From the NCBI RefSeq assembly GCF_023055435.1, contig NW_025963780.1:10168001-10232000 (forward strand): 64,000 nt of DNA, in the 5' to 3' direction. Origin of the DNA: Haliotis rufescens (Eukaryota). Below, one piece after another: positions 5,952 through 64,000 of this stretch. The position numbers were made by a program, and so were the translations under genes. Numbering within the stretch: the first letter of the stretch is position 1; each line of letters opens with the position of its first letter. Under the pieces are notes generated by a model that had not been told where the DNA came from, did no database searches, and was given only the letters and a program-made list of their open reading frames with translations.

Positions 5952-8511
5952 ATATTATTATCATTATTATTATTATTATTTGTACCAGTAGCTTAACCTT
6001 CAGTTGTTTTTCAGTCATATACTTAACCGCAAAAGAAACGTCACCGTGGGAAGATATATGAGAAACCGTATTTGTCCAAACACTGTAAACATACTTTGAG
6101 ACATATTAAAAAGATAAGACTCGGTAAAACTAATCATCAAGGTTGAAATTAAAGTGTCAAATGTTCTTCAAGTGAAACACAACACTAGTCTCTGTGAAAA
6201 TGACATCACAAGTCAATACCTCATGTGTCGGCTATGTGCATTGATGACTGCCGTGCAACGTCGATACATGGAATGGATGAGGCGGTTGATGAAGGCCATG
6301 GGCACTTGAGCCCACACTCTGAGGAACGCCTAACGCAGTTCAGCTGCAGTTGTCGGCCTTGGTCGGACGTCATTCAGTCGTCTTTGATTCTCGTCCCACA
6401 GGTGCTCAATGGGATTTAAATCGGGACTGAGGGCAGGCCACTGCATGGTTCTGATGCCATTCTGCTGGAGGAGGTCTCTTGTTGCTCTCGCAGTGTGGGC
6501 ACGGGCGTTATCATGCTAAAACTCGTGGTTGCGGCGATGTGCCAAATGAGGTATGGCCTGTGGTCTCAAGACTTGATCAATGTACCGAGCTACTGTGACA
6601 GCATTGCCTCTCCCTAGACCGATGTTCTGGAAGACCACAGGGACGACCCTCTGTGCAAGACCAATTCCACGTCACACCATGATGCTCGGACCACCCCAGA
6701 AGTCTCTCTCAACAACACAAGCATCCGAATAATGTTCCCCACGGTGTCGCCAGACTCTCTCTCTGCTTTCTGCTGTTGACATACAGTATGAGAAGAGGAT
6801 TCAGCCAATGCTGGTACTGTGTTGCCCACTGAAGATGGTCCCGGCGATGACGTTGTGTCAGAATGGGTCCTCGGGATGGCCTGTGACAGCGGAGGTGTCT
6901 GAACGTCAATCGTCGACGCGTGGTGTCTGCACTAATGTGTTGCTTGTGTGTGCACATGGTCCGTCGAGCATTTTCCGCAGCAGTAACAAAGCGATCTTGA
7001 AGATGCTGTCGCACAATCTAACGAACCTGTCGTCGGGTGGTGACCCTTGGTCTTCCACTTCGTGGGCGGTCATCTGTAGTGTTGGTGGTCTGGTATCGTT
7101 GCTGGAGCCTGTATATGGTCCTTACGTGGACTTGAAATGCATTGGCTACTTGCCGGGCGGTTTGTCCAGCTTGCAATCGTCCAAGGGCTTGATGTGGCTG
7201 ATTTCTTGTTAATCTTGGCATGTGGTAGCAATTCAATAACGAATGAATATTATCCGATCTTTGGATTTTTTATAGGGCAAGAAATGGGGGAACGCATGTG
7301 CATTTCAATTTGCACGGAACTCACGTGCTTCGGGTTACAATGGCCGTTGCCGTGATGCGTTTGGGCGATCGGTTTTTATTGTCATATGCTTTGTTTTTTA
7401 ATCATCCAATTTTATTTTTCCGAACAAGGTGATGTTAAATTTTAGAAACTTTGACAAAAATTACCCAGATATTTAAAAGACAACTTTTCATGCAATATTA
7501 CTTGGGGTGGCGTTTCTTTTATGGTTCAGTATATTATAGACACGCCATTTAGGGTAATAACAGTGAATCAACTATGATTCAGGCATAAATTAATTAACGT
7601 GTTTCACAGAAAACTGTAAAAATGCAAATAAAACACCTACCCGCATGCCTCAGACTCGCAGAATTTAAAGAGGGTATGTGTTCTTGTCGCCATTTTGTTT
7701 CGACATTGTTGAAACTCTGGGCTGTAAAGTACTTGGCAAGCACTTGTTGCCCAATCTTTCCTATCGGCGTTTGTCTGTTGGGTTATAAACAAAAACAAAT
7801 CATTAGACGCTTTCAAGGTTTTCTCATGTTATTGTTTGACAGGTGAGGTGAGGTGAGGTGAGGTGAAATGGGGATTAAATTGCGTTCAAGATTATTCCAC
7901 TGATATAGCGAAGTGCATATGCTCGAATGCGTGCTATGTGCGTGTACACGTGACTGCTTACATTAGTCAAGACTAATGCCATTTTTGATTGTGCTAGCCC
8001 ATTGAGATACCATGCTGCAGTTTAGACACAGTATACTGACTGAGCCGGCCAGTCCTTGTTTTATTCCCCTAAAGCCGAGCGCCAGGCTGGGTAACTTGTA
8101 ATGGAATAGGTCAGTTGTTGCACAAAATAAAAACCGGTTTAATAAATGTGAAATATGAAGGTATAATTACAACATCTTAATAGAAGCGAAAAAATATCAT
8201 AAAATTTACATACATTATGTACTGATTTTATTTAACATTTTTTCGGTATATTTGCATCTAAGGTTCTCACCTCACATGGCTCTTTGCCCGTGGGCACATA
8301 CTCGACACACTTATCGGGAGACACTCTCCAGGAATTTCCAAACGCAGCAGCATCAGTAGCAAGGGCGCCTGTTTGCAACGTTTTGTCGTCCTGATTGTTT
8401 CCATTGTTGTTGCCACACAAACCTTTGGTTTGATTTGCCCATGCCTCGGGTACTTCAAGTTTCACGTACAGACCTATTGATGTATCAAGGGCGGTGGTAT
8501 ATTTATTGCGT

Positions 8512-8588
<77 letters not shown>

Positions 8589-10605
8589 TGCACTTCCGAC
8601 ATTTATATGACACGAAAACTTTCCGTTGTCGATACAATTCGGAATATACATGTATGTGAGTCCACAACTATTGATTGTTGACATATAGAGAGATATGATT
8701 ATATTATGCACAAAATCAAATGTCATTCGTCTTCCACACATTTAAGTTTGCCAAAATACTTCAAATACATTTTAGTTGCTCACCTTGGTCCCATGTGATG
8801 ACAAAGTTGCGGGCGAGGATGTGATATGTAAGAGCGGTAAGTCGCACCTGGATGCCATCCAATATGTTGTTTATAGTTCCTTCTGGGTAGTTCTGACCGT
8901 TGATGTCAATACCTTTAGATCTTGCCATTGTCATAGTGAGGCCTTCACCCAACTGTATTTCAAGGGATTTGGTACACATGGTCTCGGTACCTCGACACTT
9001 GTAGCCTTGAATAAGAACCTTGATGTCATTGTACTCCAACATGACATACTGGCACGATCCGTCACTGGAACCGGGGAAGTAGTATGCGTCGCCATCAAAG
9101 GTTTGGAAGAATTGCTGGGTTCCGGACAGCGTACAGATTTCTGCACACAAACGAAAGAAAGGAAACAAAATATCAGGTTGAGGCCATTTCCTCATCATCA
9201 TGAATGTAATTTAACTTTACATTTCTGTCAATTATTGAAGATTGTCTTGTCGGTGTGCCACCGGTGAGGAAGGATACGCTTATATTTTCGCGAATACCTA
9301 GTGTCATCAATATTCAATAATGATTAATAAGCAAATGCTTGTGATATACTTCTTTTAGTAGAGTTTTCTTATAATTATGGAAATTGTTTGTGTCGCTTTA
9401 TATTAATAGTTGAACACATTTAACATACTCATTAACACTACATAGTGTATTAATTTGAGCTTTATGAATAATACAAAGTAGTATCAACTCACGTCTGCAA
9501 GTGCTTGAATCGAGAACTTCCCACTTAGCGTTGTTACATTTCCTGTAAATACAAGATGGAGTTGTAGAATTGTTTACATTCACATCATTTGGCATAGACG
9601 ATCGAATCCTCAATTACATCATCGTACTTCATGATATATACAACTATATCCTTCTATTGATAGCAATATCGTTTCTCCACACACTCACATAATATACACC
9701 ATCAGATCTTCTTATAGTGTCACGATCATATCCTAATATAGATCATAGCCACAAACGACTTCATATTGCAACACAATATTACCCACAAGTGATGAAAGAC
9801 CGAGTGCAATAACATCCCCATGTTTGCACTGTGGCATGTTTATTTGAGCGTTTTCTCAAACCTGCTAAACCACTTACAATAAAATGACGCCATACTGTTA
9901 CATTGTGGAGAACATTAAGATAAGACTTCATCCTTGGTTTCATACATTGAAAACGTCACTTTAATAATTTTTCTCAGTACTAGATAGTGTTTCAGTGTCT
10001 CGTGCGTACCTGTGTCTATGCGTACACTAGTCCGGACTTAAGTTGATTTCATAGAGCTAGCCTACTGAGGTACCCTGCCAGAATTAAACATGAATAACCC
10101 ACTCAGACACAGTATACTGACTCCGAGCCGGCCATGTTTGTCACTTCAAAGCCGAACGGATTTTGTTGCACAAAATAACAACTGATATAATAAATGATGC
10201 CCTCTACATAGTCTGGATAGAACCATGATGGACCTGAAAATCACAAGCATGCAGAAGAGGGAAATAAGGGATCGCTTAAAACACTGTGTGTATGCCAGAG
10301 CTTGCAGAAGAGGGAAATAAGGGATCGCTTAAAACACTGTGTGTATGCCAGAGCTTGCAGAAGAGGGAAATAAGGGATCGCTTAAAACACTGTGTGTATG
10401 CCAGAGCTTGCAGAAGAGGGAAATAAGGGATCGCTTAAAACACTGTGTGTATGCCAGAGCTTGACATCAACTGACAGGGTGGACAGCCTCATTAAACGTC
10501 ATCACATACTCTTCATTTAACGTTTATATGTTGATGCAACACATTGACGGTATCGTGTGCAAACAGAAAGCCTTCTAATTCACTTTTTTATTAGTATTAG
10601 CCGTT

Positions 10606-16500: not shown

Positions 16501-19500
16501 CTCAGAAGGTTTTCTGTGTCCATCATACCGCACATTGCAGGGCATGGGGATGCATACACAGAGAAGACCTTTCCAGCGGGGCACTGCTTGGCTGAAGAAT
16601 TAAAACATGACCCAATTTATTTGGATGAAAATAATAATGGTTGTATTAATAATATTGTTTTAATGAAGAGACGTAATGACATAACTAATAGTTTCCGGTT
16701 ATTATAGGACGATCAGCAATAGGAAACAGCAACAATGATAATTGCATTTTCCAAATCATCAAACTCATCTTGCCTAAATAGGATAGTATACTTACGACAG
16801 AAGCTCTTCGTTCGCCATTTAAAGTAGACTTGCTTAGCAATACACATGGAAGCATAGAGAGACAGCGTGTTGCACACAGCTTCCTGTTTGAGCTCAGGGG
16901 TCGCGGCATTGCAGTAGGCTCTCTTGCACTCATACTGGCTCAATGTGGGGTTCACCTATAACAATAACACACGTGTTACAAGACATAGGTATAAATACAG
17001 AGTCGACAAGCATTTTACAATTTGATAAACGTTACAAGACAACGGGTTTACACTCGACGAGCTCACAAGTGGAACAAATTTATCACAATTGGACAAACTT
17101 TTCTAGACGTTTACATGCACTCCATCTCTTTTTGCAGTAAAAGTATTTTCTTTCTAAAGTTATCCCCCCCTGCAGCCAGAGGCTACTCACGATATCGTTG
17201 CAGGTTCTGAATCCACTGCTTCTGAGCCAAGCACAGGCCTTGCTAGCATTGTCTTCCTCCTCCCCAGCAGCGCAGCGTCTCAGACCCTCGCCACACTGGA
17301 GAAAGAGTCATCATATTGGATGCAGAAGTGTTAACAAAAAATCATTTATATATTCAGCAGCAGTATGTTCAGGGAGTGTTGATATAAATTATAACACATC
17401 ATACACAGAGTGATATCACATTATGTACAGCGAAGGTGATAACACGTGATATACAGAGAGGTTGATGTCCCATCATATACAAAGAGGTCGATAGCACGTG
17501 AAATACAGAGAGGTTGATATCCCATCATATACACAGAAGGTTATAACACGTGATATACAGAGAGGTTGATATCCCATCATATACACAGAAGAGAGAGAGA
17601 GAGAGGGGGGGGGGGGGGGGGGGGGGCGGTTGATATCACATTGTACACAGAGAGGGTTGATATTACATGTGCCGTGAGAGTTGATAGTACAGTATGTACA
17701 AAGAGAGTTGATACTACATGTACAAAGAGAGTTGATAGTACATTTCATACAGAGAGAGTTGATATGACATCATACACAGAGAGGGTTGATGTCACATTAT
17801 ACACAGAGAGGGTTGATATCACATCATACACAGAGAGAGTTGACATCACATTATATACAGAGGGGGTTGATATCATATTATATACAGAGGAGGTTGATAT
17901 CACATTATACAGAGAGGGTTGAAATCACATTATACACAGAGAGGGTTGATATCACATTATACACAGAGAGGGTTGATTTCACATTATATACAGAGAGGGT
18001 TGATGTCACATGATATACAGAGAGGGTTGATGTCATATTATATACAGAGAGGGTTGATATCACATCATACACAGAGAGGGTTGTTATCACATTATACAGA
18101 GAGAGTTGAAATCACATAATACACAGAGAGGGTTGATATCACATCATACACAGAGAGGGTTGATGTCACATTATATACAGAGAGGGTTCATGTCACATTA
18201 TATACAGAGAGGGTTCATGTCACATTATATACAGAGAGGGTTGATGTCACATTATATACAGAGAGGGTTGATGTCACATTATATACAGAGAGGGTTGATG
18301 TCACATTATATACAGAGAGGGTTGATGTCATATTATATACAGAGGGGGTTGATGTCATATTATATACAGAGGGGGTTGATGTCATATTATATACAGAGGA
18401 GGTTGATATCACATTATACAGAGAGGGTTGAAATCACATTATACACAGAGAGGGTTGATATCACATTATACACAGAGAGGGTTGATTTCACATTATATAC
18501 AGAGAGGGTTGATGTCACATGATATACAGAGAGGGTTGATGTCATATTATATACAGAGAGGGTTGATATCACATCATACACAGAGAGGGTTGTTATCACA
18601 TTATACAGAGAGAGTTGAAATCACATAATACACAGAGAGGGTTGATATCACATCATACACAGAGAGGGTTGATGTCACATTATATACAGAGAGGGTTCAT
18701 GTCACATTATATACAGAGAGGGTTCATGTCACATTATATACAGAGAGGGTTGATGTCACATTATATACAGAGAGGGTTGATGTCACATTATATACAGAGA
18801 GGGTTGATGTCACATTATATACAGAGAGGGTTGATGTCATATTATATACAGAGGGGGTTGATGTCATATTATATACAGAGGGGGTTGATGTCATATTATA
18901 TACAGAGGGGGTTGGTAGCACGTTATACATGTTCAACGATTGTTGACAATACATACATCAAAGGTTCATGATATGCATATATACATGTATTTCAGTTTCA
19001 AAGAACATTACTGTTAAAATGATCTGACATACAACTTACCTTGTCTGAGCTTCTGAAACTGCCTGCGATACCCTTGACTTCGACGGGATTGCTTAGGAGA
19101 GCGTATTCAGCTATAGAGAAAATAATTTGCATATAATACATGTCAGGAGAATTGAGGCGATTGATAAAAGAGTCCTATTCTCTGGGCATTTATATTGCCA
19201 TATTGTTTTTTTTTTGTTCAGGTGAAGCGAAGAGCGTAGTTTGTGATAAGTATTACGAACCTGCTGGATCGCCCTTGCCGTTACCGCACATTCCGGTGAA
19301 ACCTCCATCTTCAAGCGTTGCCCTGTCGGCTGTGACCACTGCCATACCGTCATCATCAACACCGACGGTGATCTCGAATTTCGAGAGTTTGAAGTTCTTA
19401 CGTTCCATCTTTTCGTAAACGGTAATGTCTGAAAAGAATGATAACATGTATTCTCGCAAAGACATTGTCTCTTGCTTTCTCCCAATACCCACAGTAGTTT

Positions 19501-36363: not shown

Positions 36364-37914
36364 AACTGGGCGGCAAAAGAAAGTATAGGTCGAGTTCCAT
36401 GATCGATTAAAAAAATAACAAGAAGAGGTTTTGTTGTGAATTATAATATAATCTAGGGAGGGGTAACAAATGATTGATCAACCACAGTTTGAATGAAATT
36501 GTGCAATCACAGGTAATGTAAGCTCAAGGTAAACAATGGTGGGATAAGAAATTTCATTTTCAAAAGTTGTCTGAAATGTCACCAAAACATTGTCAGACAC
36601 GCTACAAGTTCATTGTCGACACAGTTGCCTTCAACAGCGTGTATGACCTCCAGCTGTCTCAATGCATGCTGTGTTACGCCGCCTCATTAATGACGTCAGT
36701 CTTCTGATGACGTGGAGTGGAATCCGTTGCCACTCGTCTCTCAGGGCCTGCTGCAATTCTTGTCTGTTGACGGGAGGCTGATGGCGTGCTCTAATATCTG
36801 TCTGTCAAGATGGTCCCACAGATGTTCAATAGGATTCATATCGGGTGAGTGGGCAGGCCAGGGCAAAACGTCAACGTTCTACTGGTTTAGAAAGTTCCGA
36901 GTCAGTCTTGCAGTATGGGGCCTGGCATTGTCGTGCTGAAACAATGTCCCCTGCTGTTGGTTTTGTAAGAACAGAAGCACAACTGGCTGCAACACTTGGT
37001 CTCTGTACTGCACAGCGTTCAGGTTTCCCTGTATAATCACCAAATCAGTCTTCTGATCTCCACAAATACCGCCCCACACCATGACACCTCCCGCGCCGAA
37101 TGGATGGACTTCTCGAATACACGCCGGAGCCAAACGTTCCCCTCTGTGTCGATAAACTCGTTCTCTGTCGTCATTTCGAAACAAGTTAAACCGACTTTCA
37201 TCAGTAAACAGCACTCGACGCCAATTTCTCACTTGCCAGCGTCGAACCTGCCTCGCCCATCGCAGTCTCAGGCGTCGATGTTGAGCAGTCAGTACCATTC
37301 CTCGGAAAGGACGATACGCTCGGATTCCAGCAGCACGAAGTCGTCGTAGTACTGTACGTTGGCTAATGGGATGTCCAAACGCTGTTGCTGGCGTCCCCGT
37401 CGCCGTTACGAATCTGTTTCGCTGGTTAATGAGCCGTACCTAACCGTCTTCCAGTGGTGTTGTCACTCGGGGTCGACCGGTTCTAGGCCTGTCCTGTGTC
37501 CTCCCTGTCTGCCTGTACCGTTGAATCAGCCTTGCTACTGGCAATGGTGTACAACCAAACTATCCGGCAATTTGGACCTGTGTTGCCCCCATTTCGGCCA
37601 TACTGATGTCTCTCTCTCTCTGCTCCTGTGACAGTCGTGGCATTTCTTTTGTGTGCTTTCATCACGTATGGTTATACACTGCAGACGAACGCATTTATAC
37701 AGCTAACACGCACGTGCAGTTTATGCCATAGGCGGGAAACCTGTTTCACAATTTTTTTGTCGACACACGAGCGCCGTCAAAGGTGGCGCGTTCGGGTGAG
37801 GTTTTGGTTCCTGATCCTGGGCAGTCATATTCCCAATACCCACTTTCCACTAGTTATCGCTGTTTTTAGGAAAATATCAAATTGCCAACCTATACTTTCT
37901 TTTGCCGCTTAGTT
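36364..37914 (-). mobile_element. Tc1/mariner transposon, decayed
   Basis: TIR AACTGGGCGGCAAAAGAAAGTATAGGT mirrored at ~37888-37914, TA flanks; VLFTDESRF, VMVWGGI, FQHDNARPH. Confidence 0.92.
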
Positions 37915-41065: not shown

Positions 41066-42863
41066 AACCCTGTAAATTATAGAGGTATTACGCTAACATC
41101 TTGCTAGTATGGAAGTTAGCACTATTATTTAATGCTATTCTTACACTTCAATACACACCTGCAGCCTATAGACACGGGGTAATTATATCTATTTAGAAGG
41201 GTAAAAAAGATGAATCAAACCCTGTAAATTATAGAGGTATTACGCTAACAAATGCCTGTTATTTTCCCGATATGTTGCAGTTTGGCTTTAGGAAGGAGCA
41301 CGGTGCTGTTATGTCGCTATTTACCCTCATCGAATGTGTACAAAGTTATGTTAACAGGGGATCATGTATCTACACAGCATTTCTAGATAACGAGAAAGCT
41401 TTTGATCGAATATGGCACTCGGGTCTCTTTGTAAAACTCTATCATCTTGGTATTAGAGGTAAAATGTGGTCTCTGTTACATCACTGTTATACTTCCATGT
41501 ATGCGTGTGTTCAGTATAAGCGCGAACAATCTGATGCATTTGCTGTTAGACAAGGTATAGGTCAGGGTAGAGTTATCTCAACTTGGCTTTTTCTTGTGTA
41601 CATAAATGACCTCATAACTGAGCTTCGGCAGTTAGATGCAGGAATATTTATATATAATGTTAGTTTACCATGCGTGTTACTTGCTGATGATACTACTCTT
41701 ATCAGTTACATCCCTAAAGGTCTGCAAACAGCCTTAGATACAGTTGTTAATTACGCATTAACTTATAATGCATCGAAAAGTACAATTGTTGTGTTTCATA
41801 TAAAGAAGCAATTATTGTGTACGCATGCTTATCACTTTGGGGACTATGATATATGCAAAATATGCGGGGGTTGTTCTACAAAGTAATCTTTCTTTCACAA
41901 AAGCAGGGCGTACTATTAATTCTCTCCTCTCTGTTGGTCTAAATAGTAGTGACTTACATCAGTATGCCAGTATTGAGATATGGAAAAGAATTATCTTAAC
42001 AACAAGTTTTTTATGGATGTGAATTACTACCTCCTCTGCATGGTAAAGATCTTGAATTAGCTGAAAGCACCCAGCGTTACTTTGCAAGGATTGTACAAGG
42101 TTTTGACAAACGTTCCCCCACTGATGCCACTATTGCTAATCTAGGACTTTGGAGCACGGTTGGCTATATAGATAAATGTAGACTACAGCTGCTGGGGCGT
42201 CTCCGCAACAACTCATGTGTCTCAATTTGTAAAACTGTTTTCTGCGCATCAACTCCAAACTATTTCTTTCATAACAATAATTTACACAGTTTATGTGGAG
42301 TGTTGCTTTCAACAGCCAAGAAATATAAGCAACTTCATCATGTATTTCACTACGTTCGCACAGGGGAATTCCCCGCGAAGACTAAGTGGAGAAAGATAGT
42401 GTTAAATGAAATAACTTCCCACGAGGAAGAAGTATGGAAATATAAACTATCATGTAGAGCTGACCTATCTCGATATTCTAAAATTCACACAACACTTACT
42501 CCTCGTGTGTTATACAGCATTGTAATGTTATATCCAGAATTGAGAGAAGAAATACAGTATGTAATAAGGATTGGATCCAGAAGCACAATATCAAAAAAAT
42601 GTGATCACCATGCTCGTGATCACCATGTCATCTTAAACTGGGAATGTCTACTTTCAGAGAGAGATGTATTCTTTTCCACTCTAATTGATAATCTTGATGT
42701 TGAAATGTGTGTTAAAATAGAGATGATGGAAGACCATGATATGGTAGCATTCTTTCTTGGTGCAGATAACAATGACATTGATGAAATAACGTGGCATTTC
42801 ACTATTATTGAATTCTCAAAGCATTTATATCAAATTAAACATATCCTAAACAACGTGTGGTAA
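41066..42863 (+). mobile_element. Decayed CR1/L2-group LINE reverse transcriptase region
   Basis: NYRGITL, QFGFR, FLDNEKAFD, QGIGQG, LLADD motifs; frameshifts; abuts the gap. Confidence 0.85.
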
Positions 42864-44229: not shown

Positions 44230-45140
44230 TCAAGGTTCTGTGTCGCCAAAATGATGTGCTGCATCAGCTATGTGTTTACTTAAGCCATTATCAATGACTG
44301 TATCGCCCAACTGATGTGATGCATCAGCTATGTGTTTACTTAAGCCATTATCAATGACTGTATCGCCCAACTGATGTGATGCATCAGCTATGTGTTTACT
44401 TAAGCCATTATCAATGACTGTATCGCCGAACTGATGTGATGCATCAGCTATGTGTTTACTTAAGCCATTATCAATGACTGTGTCGCCCAACTGATGTGAT
44501 GCATCAGCTATGTGTTTACTTAAGCCATTATCAATGACTGTATCGCCCAACTGATGTGATGCATCAGCTATGTGTTTACTTAAGCCATTATCAATGACTG
44601 TATCGCCCAACTGATGTGATGCATCAGCTATGTGTTTACTTAAGCCATTATCAATGACTGTATCGCCCAACTGATGTGATGCATCAGCTATGTGTTTACT
44701 TAAGCCATTATCAATGACTGTGTCGCCCAACTGATGTGCTGCATCAGCTATGTGTTTACTTAAGCCATTATCAAGGGGCTGTGCCGCCGAATTGATGTGT
44801 TGCATCAGCTATGTTTTCATTTAAGCCATTATTAATTAACTGTATCGCCCAACTGATGTGTTGCATCAGCTATGTGTTTACTTAAGCCATTATCAATGAC
44901 TGTGTCGCCCAACTGATGTGATGCATCAGCTATGTGTTTACTTGAGCCATTATCAATGACTGTGTCGCCCAACTGATGTGTTGCATCCGCTATGTGTTTA
45001 CTTAAGCCATTATCAAGGGGCTGTGCCGCCGAATTGATGTGTTGCATCAGCTATGTTTTCATTTAAGCCATTATTAATTAACTGTATCGCCCAACTGATG
45101 TGTTGCATCAGCTATGAGATGACTTAAGACATTATTAATG
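44230..45140. repeat. 60-bp minisatellite, ~15 units
   Basis: CTGATGTGATGCATCAGCTATGTGTTTACTTAAGCCATTATCAATGACTGTATCGCCCAA. Confidence 0.95.
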
Positions 45141-54590: not shown

Positions 54591-56150
54591 ATATGCCTCA
54601 AGAAGAGCATGAAAAGTTGTACCGATAGTCAGATATAACTAAAACAATTATGATAGTATTGCTATTTGAGGCGTAACTGATCTATAGCCTTATTGTACAG
54701 GGCATGATTATTATTTTAATTTGTGTAGGATTTTTCCCCATTTTCGTTCAAATTGTAATAGACCATTGTTTTTTGTGGCAATGAATTTTTCAATCATCGC
54801 TGACTCTTTTAGTATTTTCCTAAAATTATCAAAAATTGGTTTCTCACCCTTAATACTTGATATATATATATATATATCTTTTACTGGATATTATAATATG
54901 ATTAAGTAAGAGTTTATTTTTGTCGAATCCAAAAATAACTGAGTATTTGGTAAGTGAGATCCTAGTATTTGTGTCAAGGTTTAAAATGGTTTCCAGTTTG
55001 CTCCAAAAGTGTTTAACATATTCACATTCCCAATATACATGTATAAGGTTTTCGCCATTTAAGTCACAAAAGGAGCAAATATTATAATCAACTAGTTTCA
55101 TTTTTAATAATTCCTTTTTGGTGTAAATTATTCTATGGATAAACTTAAACTGAAAGTCAATCAATTCAGTATCTTTAGTACATTTTCTGAAATTTGAATA
55201 AACTTCTTTCCATTGAATATCATTATCAAAAAGAGATTGCCATTTTCCATTTACTAAGGGTGGTTTTGTTATTGTAATTAGTCTATCATAAAAGTACCTA
55301 GATCCTTGAACGGGTATAAATATATCCCTCAATTGTGGACTAAGATTTAAGTCATATATTGGTATTTTGATATAATGATTGACAGTGTCTCTCCATTCTT
55401 TAGGTATACTAAGTTTAACCTTATTATAATCTAATATTGTACCCTGTATATCATAACGTACTTTTAATATTTCAAATGGCAAAAATCCATTCTCATTACA
55501 TAAGTCCTTAATTGTCATTATACCCTTTTTAAACCAATTTTAATTCTGTAGTTTTCATGTTTAAATTGGTGATTTAGCCATAGGGGCTGTGATAGAATTT
55601 CGGAAATCCTTTCTGAATTTGTTGTAAATTTTCTGCCGTAATTTCCCCAAACATTTAAAACATCTCTCCAAAAAGGGTTTTTCACACATAAATATTTATC
55701 AGCATTGACTGATGTCATCACTGTTAGCAAAATATAACTTGTCTTTGATGAACTGTCTCAGTACCTTCCCACACTGCTCATGGGTAGAGTCAGACTCTGG
55801 TATGTTAGCAAAGATGAGATTATCTCTCATACTTCTAAACGTGGAATCAATGAGGGATTCAACCTCAAGTTCTCCATCTGTGCACATGCCTGGGTTTCAG
55901 TCTGGGATAATATTTGATCTTAAAGGTGTTTAATATTTTCATTAATAGGAAGTCTATCATTTTCCCAGGAATCAAAGCTTGCACTAACAAAGGTAATGCA
56001 ATCTTCTAGTTTATTAACTCTCCCCTTACCTCTTCTAACTCTTTCACTTTTAGCTCAAGTAAAGCAACATTTGATTTAATAGAGGCGATTTCAGTCTCAA
56101 TCTTGTCCAGTTTAGCCAACACCTGTGTATTTGGCGTCATTCACTTGATC
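50290..56150 (-). mobile_element. Decayed CR1/L2-group LINE (ORF1 + APE endonuclease + RT), interrupted by a second LINE
   Basis: ORF1 SMRDNLIF..IPE/RVHRL..RPRPMIA; APE LNVCRL, LQET, GDLNART, VDY; RT KAFD, GVRQGEHLSPLLF. Confidence 0.85.
54387..55712 (-). mobile_element. 5'-truncated L1/Tx1-type LINE inserted in host LINE ORF1, with 13-bp TSD
   Basis: zf-RVT FQFKFIHR...CSFC...E.LIHVYWEC...FW; A-rich tail; TGTCATCACTGTT at 54374-54386 and 55713-55725. Confidence 0.85.
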
Positions 56151-60506: not shown

Positions 60507-60659
60507 CTATGCTAACTGTCTGTGTATTTTGTTTAGTGACGTCATTGGAAGGTGTGCACCATACACCCCGGCTCGATACAGAAAGTATTCCAGTGCCAGG
60601 ATGACGCTGTCCGAGACGGGGCTGATGGTGATGCTGATGTCGCTTACTGACTTAATTCC
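60507..60659 (-). CDS. C1GALT1/T-synthase-like terminal coding exon
   Basis: ttttcttttcag acceptor, phase 0; GIKSVSDISITISPVSDSVILALEYFLYRAGVYG...* aligns by eye to G..CCSD.AISFHYV....MY.LEYL.YHL..YG. Confidence 0.8.
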   Translation of the reverse strand, partial: GIKSVSDISITISPVSDSVILALEYFLYRAGVYGAHLPMTSLNKIHRQLA

Positions 60660-61214
60660 CTGAAAAGAAAAAAAGGATGACATTGTAGGATATTTTTACA
60701 TTAAACCAACCATGTAAAAATTCGGGAAGAAATTGCTGTTAAGACCAAAGGGATTCGACTTCAAGTGGAAGAAAAGCGTCATGGAGGCTTGACAGTGCTG
60801 CCTGAAAAGGATCGAGTCTGGGACCAGTAAACCAGTGATCGGAAGCATGTGCGGTGATTCATACCGTTGGGTAATGATGACACATAATTAGCAAGGAAAC
60901 ACATTCTAACCACCCAATACTCAAAATAGTTGTCTCTTATTGGGTATTGGGGACCACCAACACGATAATACAATCAACAACACAGTAAGAATTAATACTT
61001 AATTCTATATCCAAATCTGTGTTAATGTCTTAATGTTCCCCAATCCATTACTAATTACCGTTTTCAGTATCTAGGCCAATCCTCCAGCAGATGTTATTTC
61101 GATATAGTCTTAAACATTCACTGACATATGACATTGAAACGTTCTTGTGTGGGGAGAAATAAACATATATTTTTCGACGTTAAATCCATTTGTTTAAACG
61201 AAGTTTCCTTCCCT

Positions 61215-61420
61215 TTTGTGTGTTTTTTTTGTTTAACGCCGCACTCGGCAATATTCACTGTATGATGGCGGCCTGTAAAATAATCGAGTCTGGACCAGAC
61301 AATCCAGTGATTGATATTATGAGCAAAGATCCACGCCGTCGGGTACGAAGACACGCTATCCACGAAGCCACCAAGCCAGACCGCCTGATCAATCAAGACG
61401 CCATTTACGAGCGCACCCAA
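61215..61420 (-). mobile_element. SINE-like family C copy
   Basis: Similarity to 35255-35450. Confidence 0.7.
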
Positions 61421-61816
61421 CTTAACAGATGAATTGGTATTAATCCAAGACCTACATTAAAAGATGACCATGCGTCTCTGTACTGATGTTATAATTTTTA
61501 TATAATATGGGCAACATTAGAGCAGAAAGGTCATTAAAGAACGTAAAGAAGAAAACAACATCAGCTCTGGCTTGTCTTAACAGCAGGCATCCAAACACTA
61601 TCACATAAATAAATATAGAAAGTCTAACCGTTATTTTCAAAAGTGCAGGCACAAATATACACGAGGGTCCATGATACACTCTTTGTCGTACCAAACACGC
61701 ACACAAACGGCAGACAAGGCTTTGAGTTTTCAGAAAATCGGAATTTTAGAGACGCAGAGACCGGTCATGATGTCAGAATGGCTAAGAAAAGGGGGAAATA
61801 TATATTTTTCAAAATA

Positions 61817-63230
61817 TACTCAACAACAAAAGTTCCTGTGACACCAATATTTTAGTATATTTTTCAAACAAGTAAAGTTTGGTTTTCATTGTTGTAGTAC
61901 ATGTATGGAATCAAGTCACAAAAAAGCAACTGCTACAGAAAAGCATGCATTCCATGCAAAAGTTGACTTTTATGCAAGCGCCATGCATTTTACTACCCAA
62001 GAATGGGTATAAAAACATGTGTGTTAACGGGATTCCATTCCGAGCCATTGGTATGCTTGAAGTAGGATCGAGTCAACGTGATGTTGCAAGACAAATTAAC
62101 GTCCACAGAAACACCATTTGGTGTTTATGGCAACGTTGGCAACATACGAATGCAGAAAGAGATCATCCTCGGAGTGGCAGACCACGCGTAGCCAATAATC
62201 GACAAGACAACTGGATTCGAACAACACACGTACGAAATCGATTCTAGCCAGCAACAGTGACTGCAAGAAGCATCCCTGGCCATGGCCTTTGATAAATATC
62301 TTCACAAACCGTACGTCGTCGCCTCAGATGTGCAGGGATTGTCGCCAGAAGACCCACCAGACGTTCAATTTTGACAGGACACCACCGTCAAGTACGTCTA
62401 CAGTGGTGCAGACAGCGTCTACGCTGGACGGCCATGCAGTGGGGATAACGTCACTGACGAGTCTCGTTTTCACCTCAGCCACAGCGATGGGCGGAATCGA
62501 GTGTACCGACCTCAAGGTGAACGTTACGTCAATCATTGTGTCATGGAAGAAGATCGGTTCGGGGGCGGCAGCGTTATGGTTTGGGGTGGGATTACAGCAA
62601 GACAGTGCACCCGTTTGATAGTGGTAGAGAAAAATATCAATGGACAGCGCTACCGCAACGAGATCATCGGCCCTGTTGTTCTACCGTTTTTGCGTCGTCA
62701 TGGCCCAGGCATTCCCTTTCAACATGACAACGCCCGGCCTCATATTGCTCGACTTGTTCAGGAATCTCTTCAACAAAACAACGTGCATGTCATCCCCGGC
62801 CGGCTCGCTCCCCTAATCTCTCACCAATCGAGCACATGTGGGATGAGATGGATCGGCACCTTCGACGTCAACCACGTGTTCCACAGACACTCCAGGAACA
62901 TCGAAACATGCTCCAGCAGATATGGACAGATATCCCACAGGACTTTATGCGACGCCTGGTCCATTCCATGAGACGAAGATGTGTTGCTTGCATCGCAACC
63001 AGAGGTGGACACACACGCTATTGATTTGTAAATTGACATTTTGGCATGTTCATGGGTTGTTGTTTTTTATAAAATCACGCATTTTCTGAAGTCAGTATGG
63101 CAAATTAAACCATTAGAACACTTAAAGGAGTCTTTTATCTGTTTCAAACCGAAATTGTTTCAGATTTGGTAAAAAACATAACTGTGCATTCAATCTTATT
63201 CAATGTCACAGGAACTTTTGTTGTTCAGTA
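61817..63230 (+). mobile_element. Tc1/mariner transposon, decayed, inside the last intron of the C1GALT1-like gene
   Basis: TIR TACTCAACAACAAAAGTTCCTGTGACA / TGTCACAGGAACTTTTGTTGTTCAGTA, TA TSD; RSGRPRV, VMVWGGI, FQHDNARPH, SPIEHMWD. Confidence 0.93.
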
Positions 63231-63734
63231 TATCATCAGCGAGACCAGATGTAATATTGTTGTCTTAATCATGTAAGGAACTTTAGATACACGAATCCGC
63301 GAATCGGTCTTCACCAGAGATACATTGACATAAGGGGAGCTGACGTTATTTGAAATCTGCTGCTATAAAATAACTGGTGTTGCACGGAAACATGTGTTTC
63401 TAAAACGAGCTGAGTACTATTTTTTTTTTTTAACTCTCTCGCAAACAATCTTGATCCGGGGCAAAACACTTTTGTATAATGCATATGTAACAATTCATTT
63501 TTCGCTCTGTGATCTGATAAGAACTTATTGCGCTTAGTGGCAAATCATTTCTTACAATGAGGGTAGTTTGGGAAACCAAAGGTTTCCTGCTTCCAATGCT
63601 TCAGCCTTGGGTTTTCATGTGTAAGGCCAGAGTAGGATTCCACACACGACTACAATTGCACTGTGTGCCTTGGCGTGACTGTGATGTTGTTAAATGCATT
63701 GCTAAATACACAGTCCATGTATGACAGACATTAC

Positions 63735-64000
63735 CTGCTTTGTCATGTTATGATGCACGTCTAATTCAGCGAACCATGCAGGATATTCATGTACAGAAAC
63801 CGACTCCACGGATATGCCGTGAAACCGACTTCTGTCCAGTGCATCCCGAGAGTCGCCCAGGATGATGCCCAGATGCCGGAAGCACTCCGCGACAACAAGA
63901 CATTCGGAGGAAGTGCTTCCTTTACAGCTTGTCTTCGGTGGACTGGATGCCCCGAATTTTGAAATTGCTTCTCTGCTGATAACATAACCGGCGCTCCCTA
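63735..64000 (-). CDS. C1GALT1/T-synthase-like (GT31) penultimate coding exon, 5'-truncated by window edge
   Basis: Translates to GSAGYVISREAISKF...C...ECLVVAECFRHLGIILGDSRDALDRSRFH...YPAWF..., matching T-synthase GGAGYVLSKEAL...EDV..G.C...GDSRD..GR.RF; gtaatg donor, phase 0. Confidence 0.85.

Follow-up and report, generated by a model that had tools for sequence, protein, structure and literature searches.

How a T-synthase paralogue that appears to lack its catalytic residues comes to be kept in a mollusc is the question raised by a gene lying across one end of a 64,000-nucleotide stretch of the Haliotis rufescens genome (G000:C2:10168001-10232000; hereafter the window). An earlier note, drawn from the letters of the window alone, had proposed for it an inactive C1GalT1 (T-synthase) homologue comparable to Cosmc. 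Here we describe an intact, spliced T-synthase paralogue of glycosyltransferase family 31 (GT31) that is likely inactive and that, in a reading to which we give almost an even chance, would serve in the secretory pathway as a non-catalytic subunit whose predicted partners are active T-synthase copies.

Gene structure and splicing

The gene lies on the minus strand and comprises three exons of 208, 668 and 153 bp, separated by GT..AG introns of phases 1 and 0, which translate exactly to the stored 342-residue protein P0002. Exon 1 (G000:C2:10247910-10247703, 208 bp), outside the window, provides the ATG, the membrane anchor and the stem. Exon 2 (G000:C2:10232402-10231735, 668 bp) extends 402 bases beyond the window edge, and this outer portion encodes the DxD position (His166-Pro167-Met168). 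Its 3' part (window 63735-64000) supplies residues 205–292 as 88 codons from 63998 and ends at a GT donor at 63734. Alignment to 7q4i, the structure of Drosophila C1GalT1, places here the G-loop GSAGY (63984-63998; GGAGY in 7q4i), with Leu204 just before it at the Ser220 position, and the xED position, which reads Ser235-Glu236-Cys237 (63900-63908), with Cys237 at the Asp255 position, six residues before the conserved Cys243. Intron 2 (60660-63734, 3075 bp, GT..AG, phase 0) separates this segment from exon 3 (60507-60659, 153 bp), which follows an AG acceptor and carries 50 codons for residues 293–342 and the stop TAG at 60509-60507. Within exon 3, Ser305-Pro306 (60618-60623) occupy the His324-Tyr325 position of 7q4i, and the C-terminal helix (LEYFLY) is predicted to form most of the dimer interface.

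As the earlier note had it, the two in-window exons join in phase 0 into 88 + 50 = 138 stop-free codons, and the motifs GSAGYVISRE, SSEC, GDSRD, SRFH, SVSDISITISP and LEYFLY read as it gave them. Frame length is weak evidence, because the six frames of the window contain 84 stop-free runs of at least 88 codons; the evidence is homology. The 88-residue part of exon 2 finds 7q4i as its sole Protein Data Bank match (E 7.6e-08), and the whole protein matches the same structure at E 2.3e-35 (phmmer), in agreement with the proposed T-synthase kinship.

A survey of sequencing runs lists 24, of which 18, in 5 studies, contain exon 2; none is recorded as RNA. A contig skips the 3075 bases of intron 2 in all four runs examined, although in run X5 it has merely 27 letters on the short side of the joint, and a contig joins exon 1 to the start of exon 2 in 4/4 runs examined. 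In X1, X2 and X9 the exon 1-2 contig equals the intron 2-skipping contig in length and depth. Spliced contigs derive from 5 runs and 4 studies in all, and the contigs from which both introns are missing most likely represent mRNA. The gene is intact and spliced, including the upstream exons that the earlier note had left for checking, and the DxD within them reads HPM. At the exon 1 donor (G000:C2:10247703), the Haliotis record P0159 and runs X9 and X13 carry three extra codons at the exon 1-2 joint relative to P0002.

Protein architecture and predicted fold

The protein is predicted to adopt a type II membrane topology, with an N-terminal hydrophobic helix (hydrophobic window beginning at residue 7, with a mean of 1.7; model helix 2–33), a stem and a lumenal domain. 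Sequence and fold both place it in the C1GALT group of GT31, the phmmer match to 7q4i being accompanied by a Foldseek match to the same structure at E 1.7e-23. The AlphaFold model, built on a 137-row alignment, reaches a predicted local distance difference test score (pLDDT) of 85, and 7q4i is its top-ranked Foldseek match, with a template modelling (TM) score of 0.85 by target; the GT-A fold is predicted to be intact, although active enzymes make up most of the alignment and bias the model toward their fold. A structure prediction made earlier with a 6-row alignment was discarded (pLDDT 40). Identity to Drosophila C1GalT1 is 29%, the Cys pairs 86/110 and 229/243 are shared, and an N-glycan sequon lies at Asn288. 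Pfam assigns no family to the two in-window exons alone; on the whole protein, Fringe scores 12.8 bits against a cut-off of 21, and Galactosyl_T is absent.

Loss of the active site

Active-site residues were mapped by alignment to 7q4i, with functional residues as named in PMC9065035. The DxD motif D181-D182-D183 is replaced by H166-P167-M168, the catalytic base D255 (PMC9065035) by C237, and H324 and Y325, which that source gives as Mn2+ and pyrophosphate ligands, by S305 and P306. Additionally, E150-G151-R152, L155 and K158 have no counterpart in P0002. None of the ten contacts to uridine diphosphate (UDP) and Mn (E150, G151, R152, L155, K158, D181, D182, D183, H324, Y325) is therefore retained, and of six acceptor contacts one, W300, survives; Y213, S220 and Y304 are lost, and Y218 is Phe. 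Where 43 active-type subfamily rows show conservation of at least 60%, P0002 retains 1/12 active-site versus 54/102 other positions (Fisher p 0.004), and the orthologue of the vent snail Gigantopelta retains 1/12 versus 49/102 (p 0.012).

The features of an active T-synthase (EC 2.4.1.122), namely the DxD, the xED Asp and the C-terminal His with Tyr, are thus all absent (HPM; SEC; Ser305-Pro306), and, judged from the sequence, the protein is very probably inactive. The loss of catalytic residues that had been suggested from the window is upheld by the 7q4i map and extends to the DxD, which lay outside that reader's view. Deviation at the DxD is not rare in the family: it occurs in 37 of 201 C1GALT-like domain rows, six of which are this gene and its Haliotis relatives and many others of which are single substitutions.

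Orthologues and age of the loss

Orthologues are found in other abalones and beyond. P0159 is 98% identical and reads HTM at the DxD, a Logan protein is 97% identical, and the H. rubra and H. asinina orthologues are 84% and 80% identical. More distantly, the full-length P0013 of the deep-sea vent snail Gigantopelta aegis (30%) has VPQ at the DxD and Gly for the His, and an ENA fragment, P0022 (33%), has LPE. Databases name these orthologues 'C1GALT1-like'. The five rows of this group that entered the tree form one clade with support 99/93 under LG+C20 (49 rows chosen from 189). No orthologue appears among the caenogastropod, heterobranch, limpet, bivalve or cephalopod rows listed, the searches being word-limited or covering the best 150 of 2285 matches and names being given for 30 proteins.

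The open frame and the same substitutions recur in four Haliotis records, a check that the earlier note had proposed for related species. In the H. rubra comparison the GT domain is identical at 226/258 positions versus 22/40 in the stem, and the former active-site positions at 16/16 versus 173/203 for the rest, given as raw counts. Trp300 is kept and Tyr218 is Phe in all six clade rows. Orthologues that lack the DxD or the His are present in other Haliotis records, Gigantopelta aegis and the ENA fragment, so the gene is very unlikely to be a product of decay; the earlier note had argued the same from the open frame and conserved motifs, and its conclusion stands on the orthologues and the active-site-focused loss (p 0.004), frame length alone saying little.

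Vetigastropoda and Neomphalina are sister groups of subclass level according to PMC9048639, and since orthologues lie on both sides, the DxD and His were probably lost before the two lineages separated, an event for which the literature consulted gave no date. The loss of the xED Asp, which the earlier note reported, holds for Haliotis but is restricted to it: neomphaline rows, including Gigantopelta, retain E-E-D one residue out of register. The catalytic base may accordingly have been lost later than the DxD and His, in the abalone lineage.

Probable origin within the lophotrochozoan T-synthase subfamily

A genome search with P0002 returns 43 matches, 30 of them with loci. Of 27 exon-2 frames examined, 25 retain DDD; the exceptions are the present gene and a second DxD-less paralogue, L042 (also L055; P0164; 337 residues; G000:C2:27439893-27439231, minus strand), which has EQI at the DxD, no xED and no FHY. 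P0164 has an H. rubra orthologue of 85% identity, and L042/P0164 is sister to the present clade in both trees (96/92 under LG+C20, on long branches).

In a FastTree analysis of 189 domain rows (nine ids omitted as duplicates, fragments or outliers), the present gene and L042 fall inside a 66-row clade with support 98. Every named member of that clade is a mollusc, an annelid or a bryozoan, and outside it stand the fish, amphioxus, hemichordate and arthropod rows as well as this genome's canonical copy L033. In the LG+C20 tree, a 99/97 branch divides this lophotrochozoan subfamily from canonical and nemertean rows. Profile log-odds of the dead rows also point toward the subfamily, at +72 for P0002 and +57, +42, +61 and +38 for the others. 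In leave-one-out scoring the subfamily spans +22 to +110 and the canonical group -39 to -144; a DxD-less domain from a hemichordate comes out at -19. The profile groups were derived from the tree, so this test is not independent of it. Two results weigh against the placement: approximately unbiased (AU) tests reject neither a tree that sets the dead clade next to that hemichordate domain (p 0.096) nor one that puts it on the canonical side, outside the lophotrochozoan subfamily (p 0.216). The trees include no vertebrate Cosmc, and none is among the matches listed by homologue searches and by a representative search (the best 150 of 2285); Cosmc was compared by eye with rows of supplement 1 of Petit et al. 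The claim of independent evolution in the earlier note is thus favoured by trees and profile without being proven.

P0002 carries the subfamily residues S261, Y276 and D284 and no CC. At the CCSD column, Cys is nowhere the commonest residue in active-type lophotrochozoan sequences, where S and M prevail, versus a Cys frequency of 1.0 in the canonical group, and a snail T-synthase with TMSD is reported to be active, CCSD being dispensable (PMC11005171, PMC9865085). The earlier note had counted CCSD to SVSD among the lesions of this gene; because the subfamily lacks CCSD, the change is an inherited trait and not a lesion.

Predicted pairing with active copies

According to PMC9065035, C1GalT1 is an obligate tight dimer with L95 and Y336 in its interface, and Cosmc is proposed to help form the C1GalT1 dimer interface. 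Both residues are retained in P0002, as L78 and Y317. An ESMFold2 complex of P0002 with the active-type paralogue P0015 scores 0.86, the best of three controls scoring 0.01; at least 76% of contacts are common between runs, and partner pLDDT is at least 83. The mark applied to such scores is reached by 51/78 solved pairs and 2/108 mismatched ones, and among eukaryotes by 39/65 and 2/126. Fused proteins in which a DxD-less domain precedes an intact one occur in P0161 (Drosophila grimshawi) and similarly in P0020, P0024 and P0065, as well as in P0023 (Patella) and P0050 (Glandiceps), an arrangement that would fit the pairing of a dead with a live domain.

In the history we infer, duplication within the lophotrochozoan T-synthase expansion would have been followed by loss of catalysis before the Vetigastropoda/Neomphalina split. 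The dead copy would have been retained because C1GalT1 is an obligate dimer, in which a dead subunit could stabilise, sort or throttle active copies, a logic equal to that of Cosmc and CHPF and reached separately. A dimer-partner role is about as likely as not, or very slightly likelier. More tentatively, and well short of an even chance, abalones and vent snails might possess their own Cosmc analogue, an ancient dead lineage, by now divided into two genes, whose products would form heterodimers with the expanded T-synthases and regulate how these fold or how much they put out.

Several points weigh against the pairing role. P0015 is a stand-in, 87–88% identical to this genome's L026-L030, and a passing complex score is what the solved homodimer 7q4i leads one to expect; it would measure likeness rather than binding and gives no specificity among family members. 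Some fused dead-plus-live records may be merged gene models. Conservation in the predicted interface does not exceed that of the remaining positions (6/12 versus 54/102, p 1.0), and Haliotis–Gigantopelta identity is 11/36 in the interface versus 65/201 elsewhere. When produced in insect cells, mollusc T-synthases are reported to fold and be active with no chaperone (PMC9865085, PMC11005171), so that an obligatory chaperone is unnecessary for those tested. Moreover, the complete active-site identity with H. rubra would also fit a new binding role of the pocket.

Alternative explanations

That last observation leads to a pseudoenzyme with a binding role of its own, a membrane-bound lectin-like or scaffold homodimer whose remodelled pocket would bind a Tn-glycopeptide, mucin or another glycosyltransferase and which would not pair with T-synthases. 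We consider it rather unlikely: the 16/16 identity, the acceptor-binding Trp300 and the Phe at the Tyr218 position kept throughout the clade, and an interface without special conservation speak for it, but the GalNAc contacts S220, D255, Y304 and Y213 have gone, Haliotis and Gigantopelta have mostly different replacement residues (5/14 identical), and the 16/16 versus 173/203 contrast consists of raw counts. The same divergence of replacements across the clade counts against a glycosyltransferase that has stayed active by rebuilding its active site to work without metal, on the pattern of GT14 or bacterial GT6. GT-A families lacking the DxD or C-terminal His can remain active through basic side chains (PMC7185993), Arg164 and His166 stand at the former DxD, and Gigantopelta has E-E-D near the base position; yet Haliotis has Cys at the base position, nothing is left of the residues that bind uracil and pyrophosphate, and His324/Tyr325 are replaced by no basic residue (Ser-Pro; Gly-Pro in Gigantopelta), which makes such an enzyme improbable. 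A decaying, transcribed duplicate without function would account for the long branch and would be expected in a family expanded to 43 matches, where copies are redundant. It is scarcely credible given the shared open frame and substitutions of the four Haliotis records, the full-length Gigantopelta orthologue, a loss focused on the active site and much stronger conservation of the GT domain than of the stem.

A true orthologue of vertebrate Cosmc (C1GALT1C1), retained in basal gastropods as a chaperone of the endoplasmic reticulum, bears on origin as well as role, and we hold it to be unlikely. The main point for orthology is the likeness of HPMTF at the DxD to the Cosmc rows of Petit et al., mostly [RHY]P[TS]TF by eye (RPTTF, HPTTF or YPTTF in vertebrates), which is otherwise convergence. 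The C-terminal His is missing in both, Atlas ranks a Cosmc cluster second by features (0.98), and the AU tests leave a placement outside the lophotrochozoan subfamily unrejected. The earlier note called Cosmc vertebrate-specific, which agrees with the usual statement (PMC2500138, vertebrates alone; PMC11005171), and PMC9865085 and PMC11005171 report no Cosmc homologue detected in molluscs, with T-synthases active without one; however, Petit et al. (PMC8022947) label a DxD-less amphioxus protein C1GALT1C1 and date the C1GALT1/C1GALT1C1 split before Cnidaria. The Hydra, Saccoglossus and oyster rows inspected in their supplement 1 retain DDD. Against orthology, the best trees nest the gene among mollusc, annelid and bryozoan rows, the profile test gives +42 to +72 toward the lophotrochozoan subfamily, and the Cosmc rows, by eye, retain the CCSD and W..K helix of the canonical group where P0002 has the subfamily states. 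In those Cosmc rows S-E-D stands six residues ahead of the conserved Cys, although Cosmc is said to have lost xED (PMC7185993). Vertebrate C1GALT1C1 has a single coding exon (PMC8022947), versus three here with an exon-2 span as in active paralogues, and the Gigantopelta model is nearer C1GALT1 (TM 0.82) than Cosmc (TM 0.68). The present gene therefore shares with Cosmc the loss of the DxD, and differs in the CCSD (SVSD) and the number of coding exons. An origin separate from Cosmc is probable on these comparisons, and we classify the protein as a candidate GT31 pseudoenzyme, long-conserved and Cosmc-like in design, without assigning it as Cosmc. No earlier report of the gene or clade was found in the literature searched, most subscription journals lying outside that search.

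Family expansion and genomic neighbourhood

C1GALT-like matches are distributed over contigs C2, C594, C582, C401, C598, C86, C40, C43, C58, C46, C13 and others, and a cluster of tandem copies occupies C2:41.8-42.0 Mb. L035, L036 and L038 retain DDD and have the base motif GD, not ED. Tandem C1GALT-like proteins, including P0011, combine one degenerate domain with one or two intact ones. An assignment of L042 as an amphioxus-type C1GALT1C1, suggested by a shared DR.AG stretch, was dropped; its profile score is +38 toward the lophotrochozoan subfamily, and it groups with the present gene.

GT32-like (alpha-1,4-glycosyltransferase-like) exons lie on the same minus strand about 8–13 kb upstream of exon 1 (L020:8915-9454 and L021:2977-3666; Gly_transf_sug E 0.0004, just under the cut-off), a possible O-glycan neighbourhood. 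Downstream, a von Willebrand factor type D exon (window 8235-8591, minus, E 1.7e-08) probably belongs to a large mucin-like gene that also runs on the minus strand. Tc1/mariner transposase and non-LTR (long terminal repeat) reverse-transcriptase fragments occur at window 36879-37439 (minus), 41197-42863 (plus), 54850-55539 (minus) and 62375-62971 (plus), the last a Tc1/mariner-like fragment within intron 2 (DDE_3 E 0.0016, under the family cut-off). Tandem minisatellite arrays, which yield long spurious open frames, lie in intron 1 (L018:7850-10000), upstream of the gene (L020:2370-3560) and elsewhere in the window (18058-18522, 44230-44808).

Significance

Textbooks present Cosmc as a private chaperone, and recent studies of molluscs report no detectable invertebrate homologue (PMC11005171, PMC9865085). 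A separately evolved, long-conserved dead T-synthase would offer a second natural experiment in how a dimeric glycosyltransferase gives rise to a pseudoenzyme, and would directly test the view of PMC9065035 that the dimer interface is where Cosmc acts. For a farmed mollusc with about 40 family matches, it is also relevant to the making of mucus O-glycans, and it illustrates how 'C1GALT1-like' database names conceal inactive proteins. If abalones and vent snails do have their own Cosmc analogue, then together with the fly, limpet and acorn-worm fusions the inactive partner subunit would be a repeated outcome of the obligate C1GalT1 dimer and not a vertebrate one-off. The weight of this is limited by a role that is modelled and by degenerate copies being fairly common in the family.

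Comparison with known systems

With C1GalT1/T-synthase (GT31; 7q4i and the Biomphalaria, Pomacea and Crassostrea enzymes), the protein shares a type II arrangement, the GT-A fold, 29% identity, the Cys pairs, the interface Leu and Tyr and the acceptor Trp. Unlike C1GalT1, it has no DxD, catalytic Asp, C-terminal His or EGR, it lacks CCSD as its own subfamily does, and its Fringe match stays below the cut-off.

Cosmc/C1GALT1C1 of vertebrates, and the amphioxus protein to which Petit et al. give that name, is likewise a type II T-synthase paralogue lacking the DxD and the His, with Pro in the middle of the former DxD. The present protein differs in its likely separate lophotrochozoan origin, its lack of CCSD, its three coding exons and its sequon at Asn288, and the mollusc T-synthases tested need no chaperone.

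CHPF and CHPF2, the GT31 partners of CHSY1/3, are also paralogues with altered catalytic motifs that act by forming heterodimers with active relatives (PMC8022947), and the CHSY3-CHPF structures 9q8z and 9o4g are among the structure matches of P0002. They belong to another GT31 branch, have two domains and retain the DxD region differently; the partner of the present gene, by comparison, is a predicted one.

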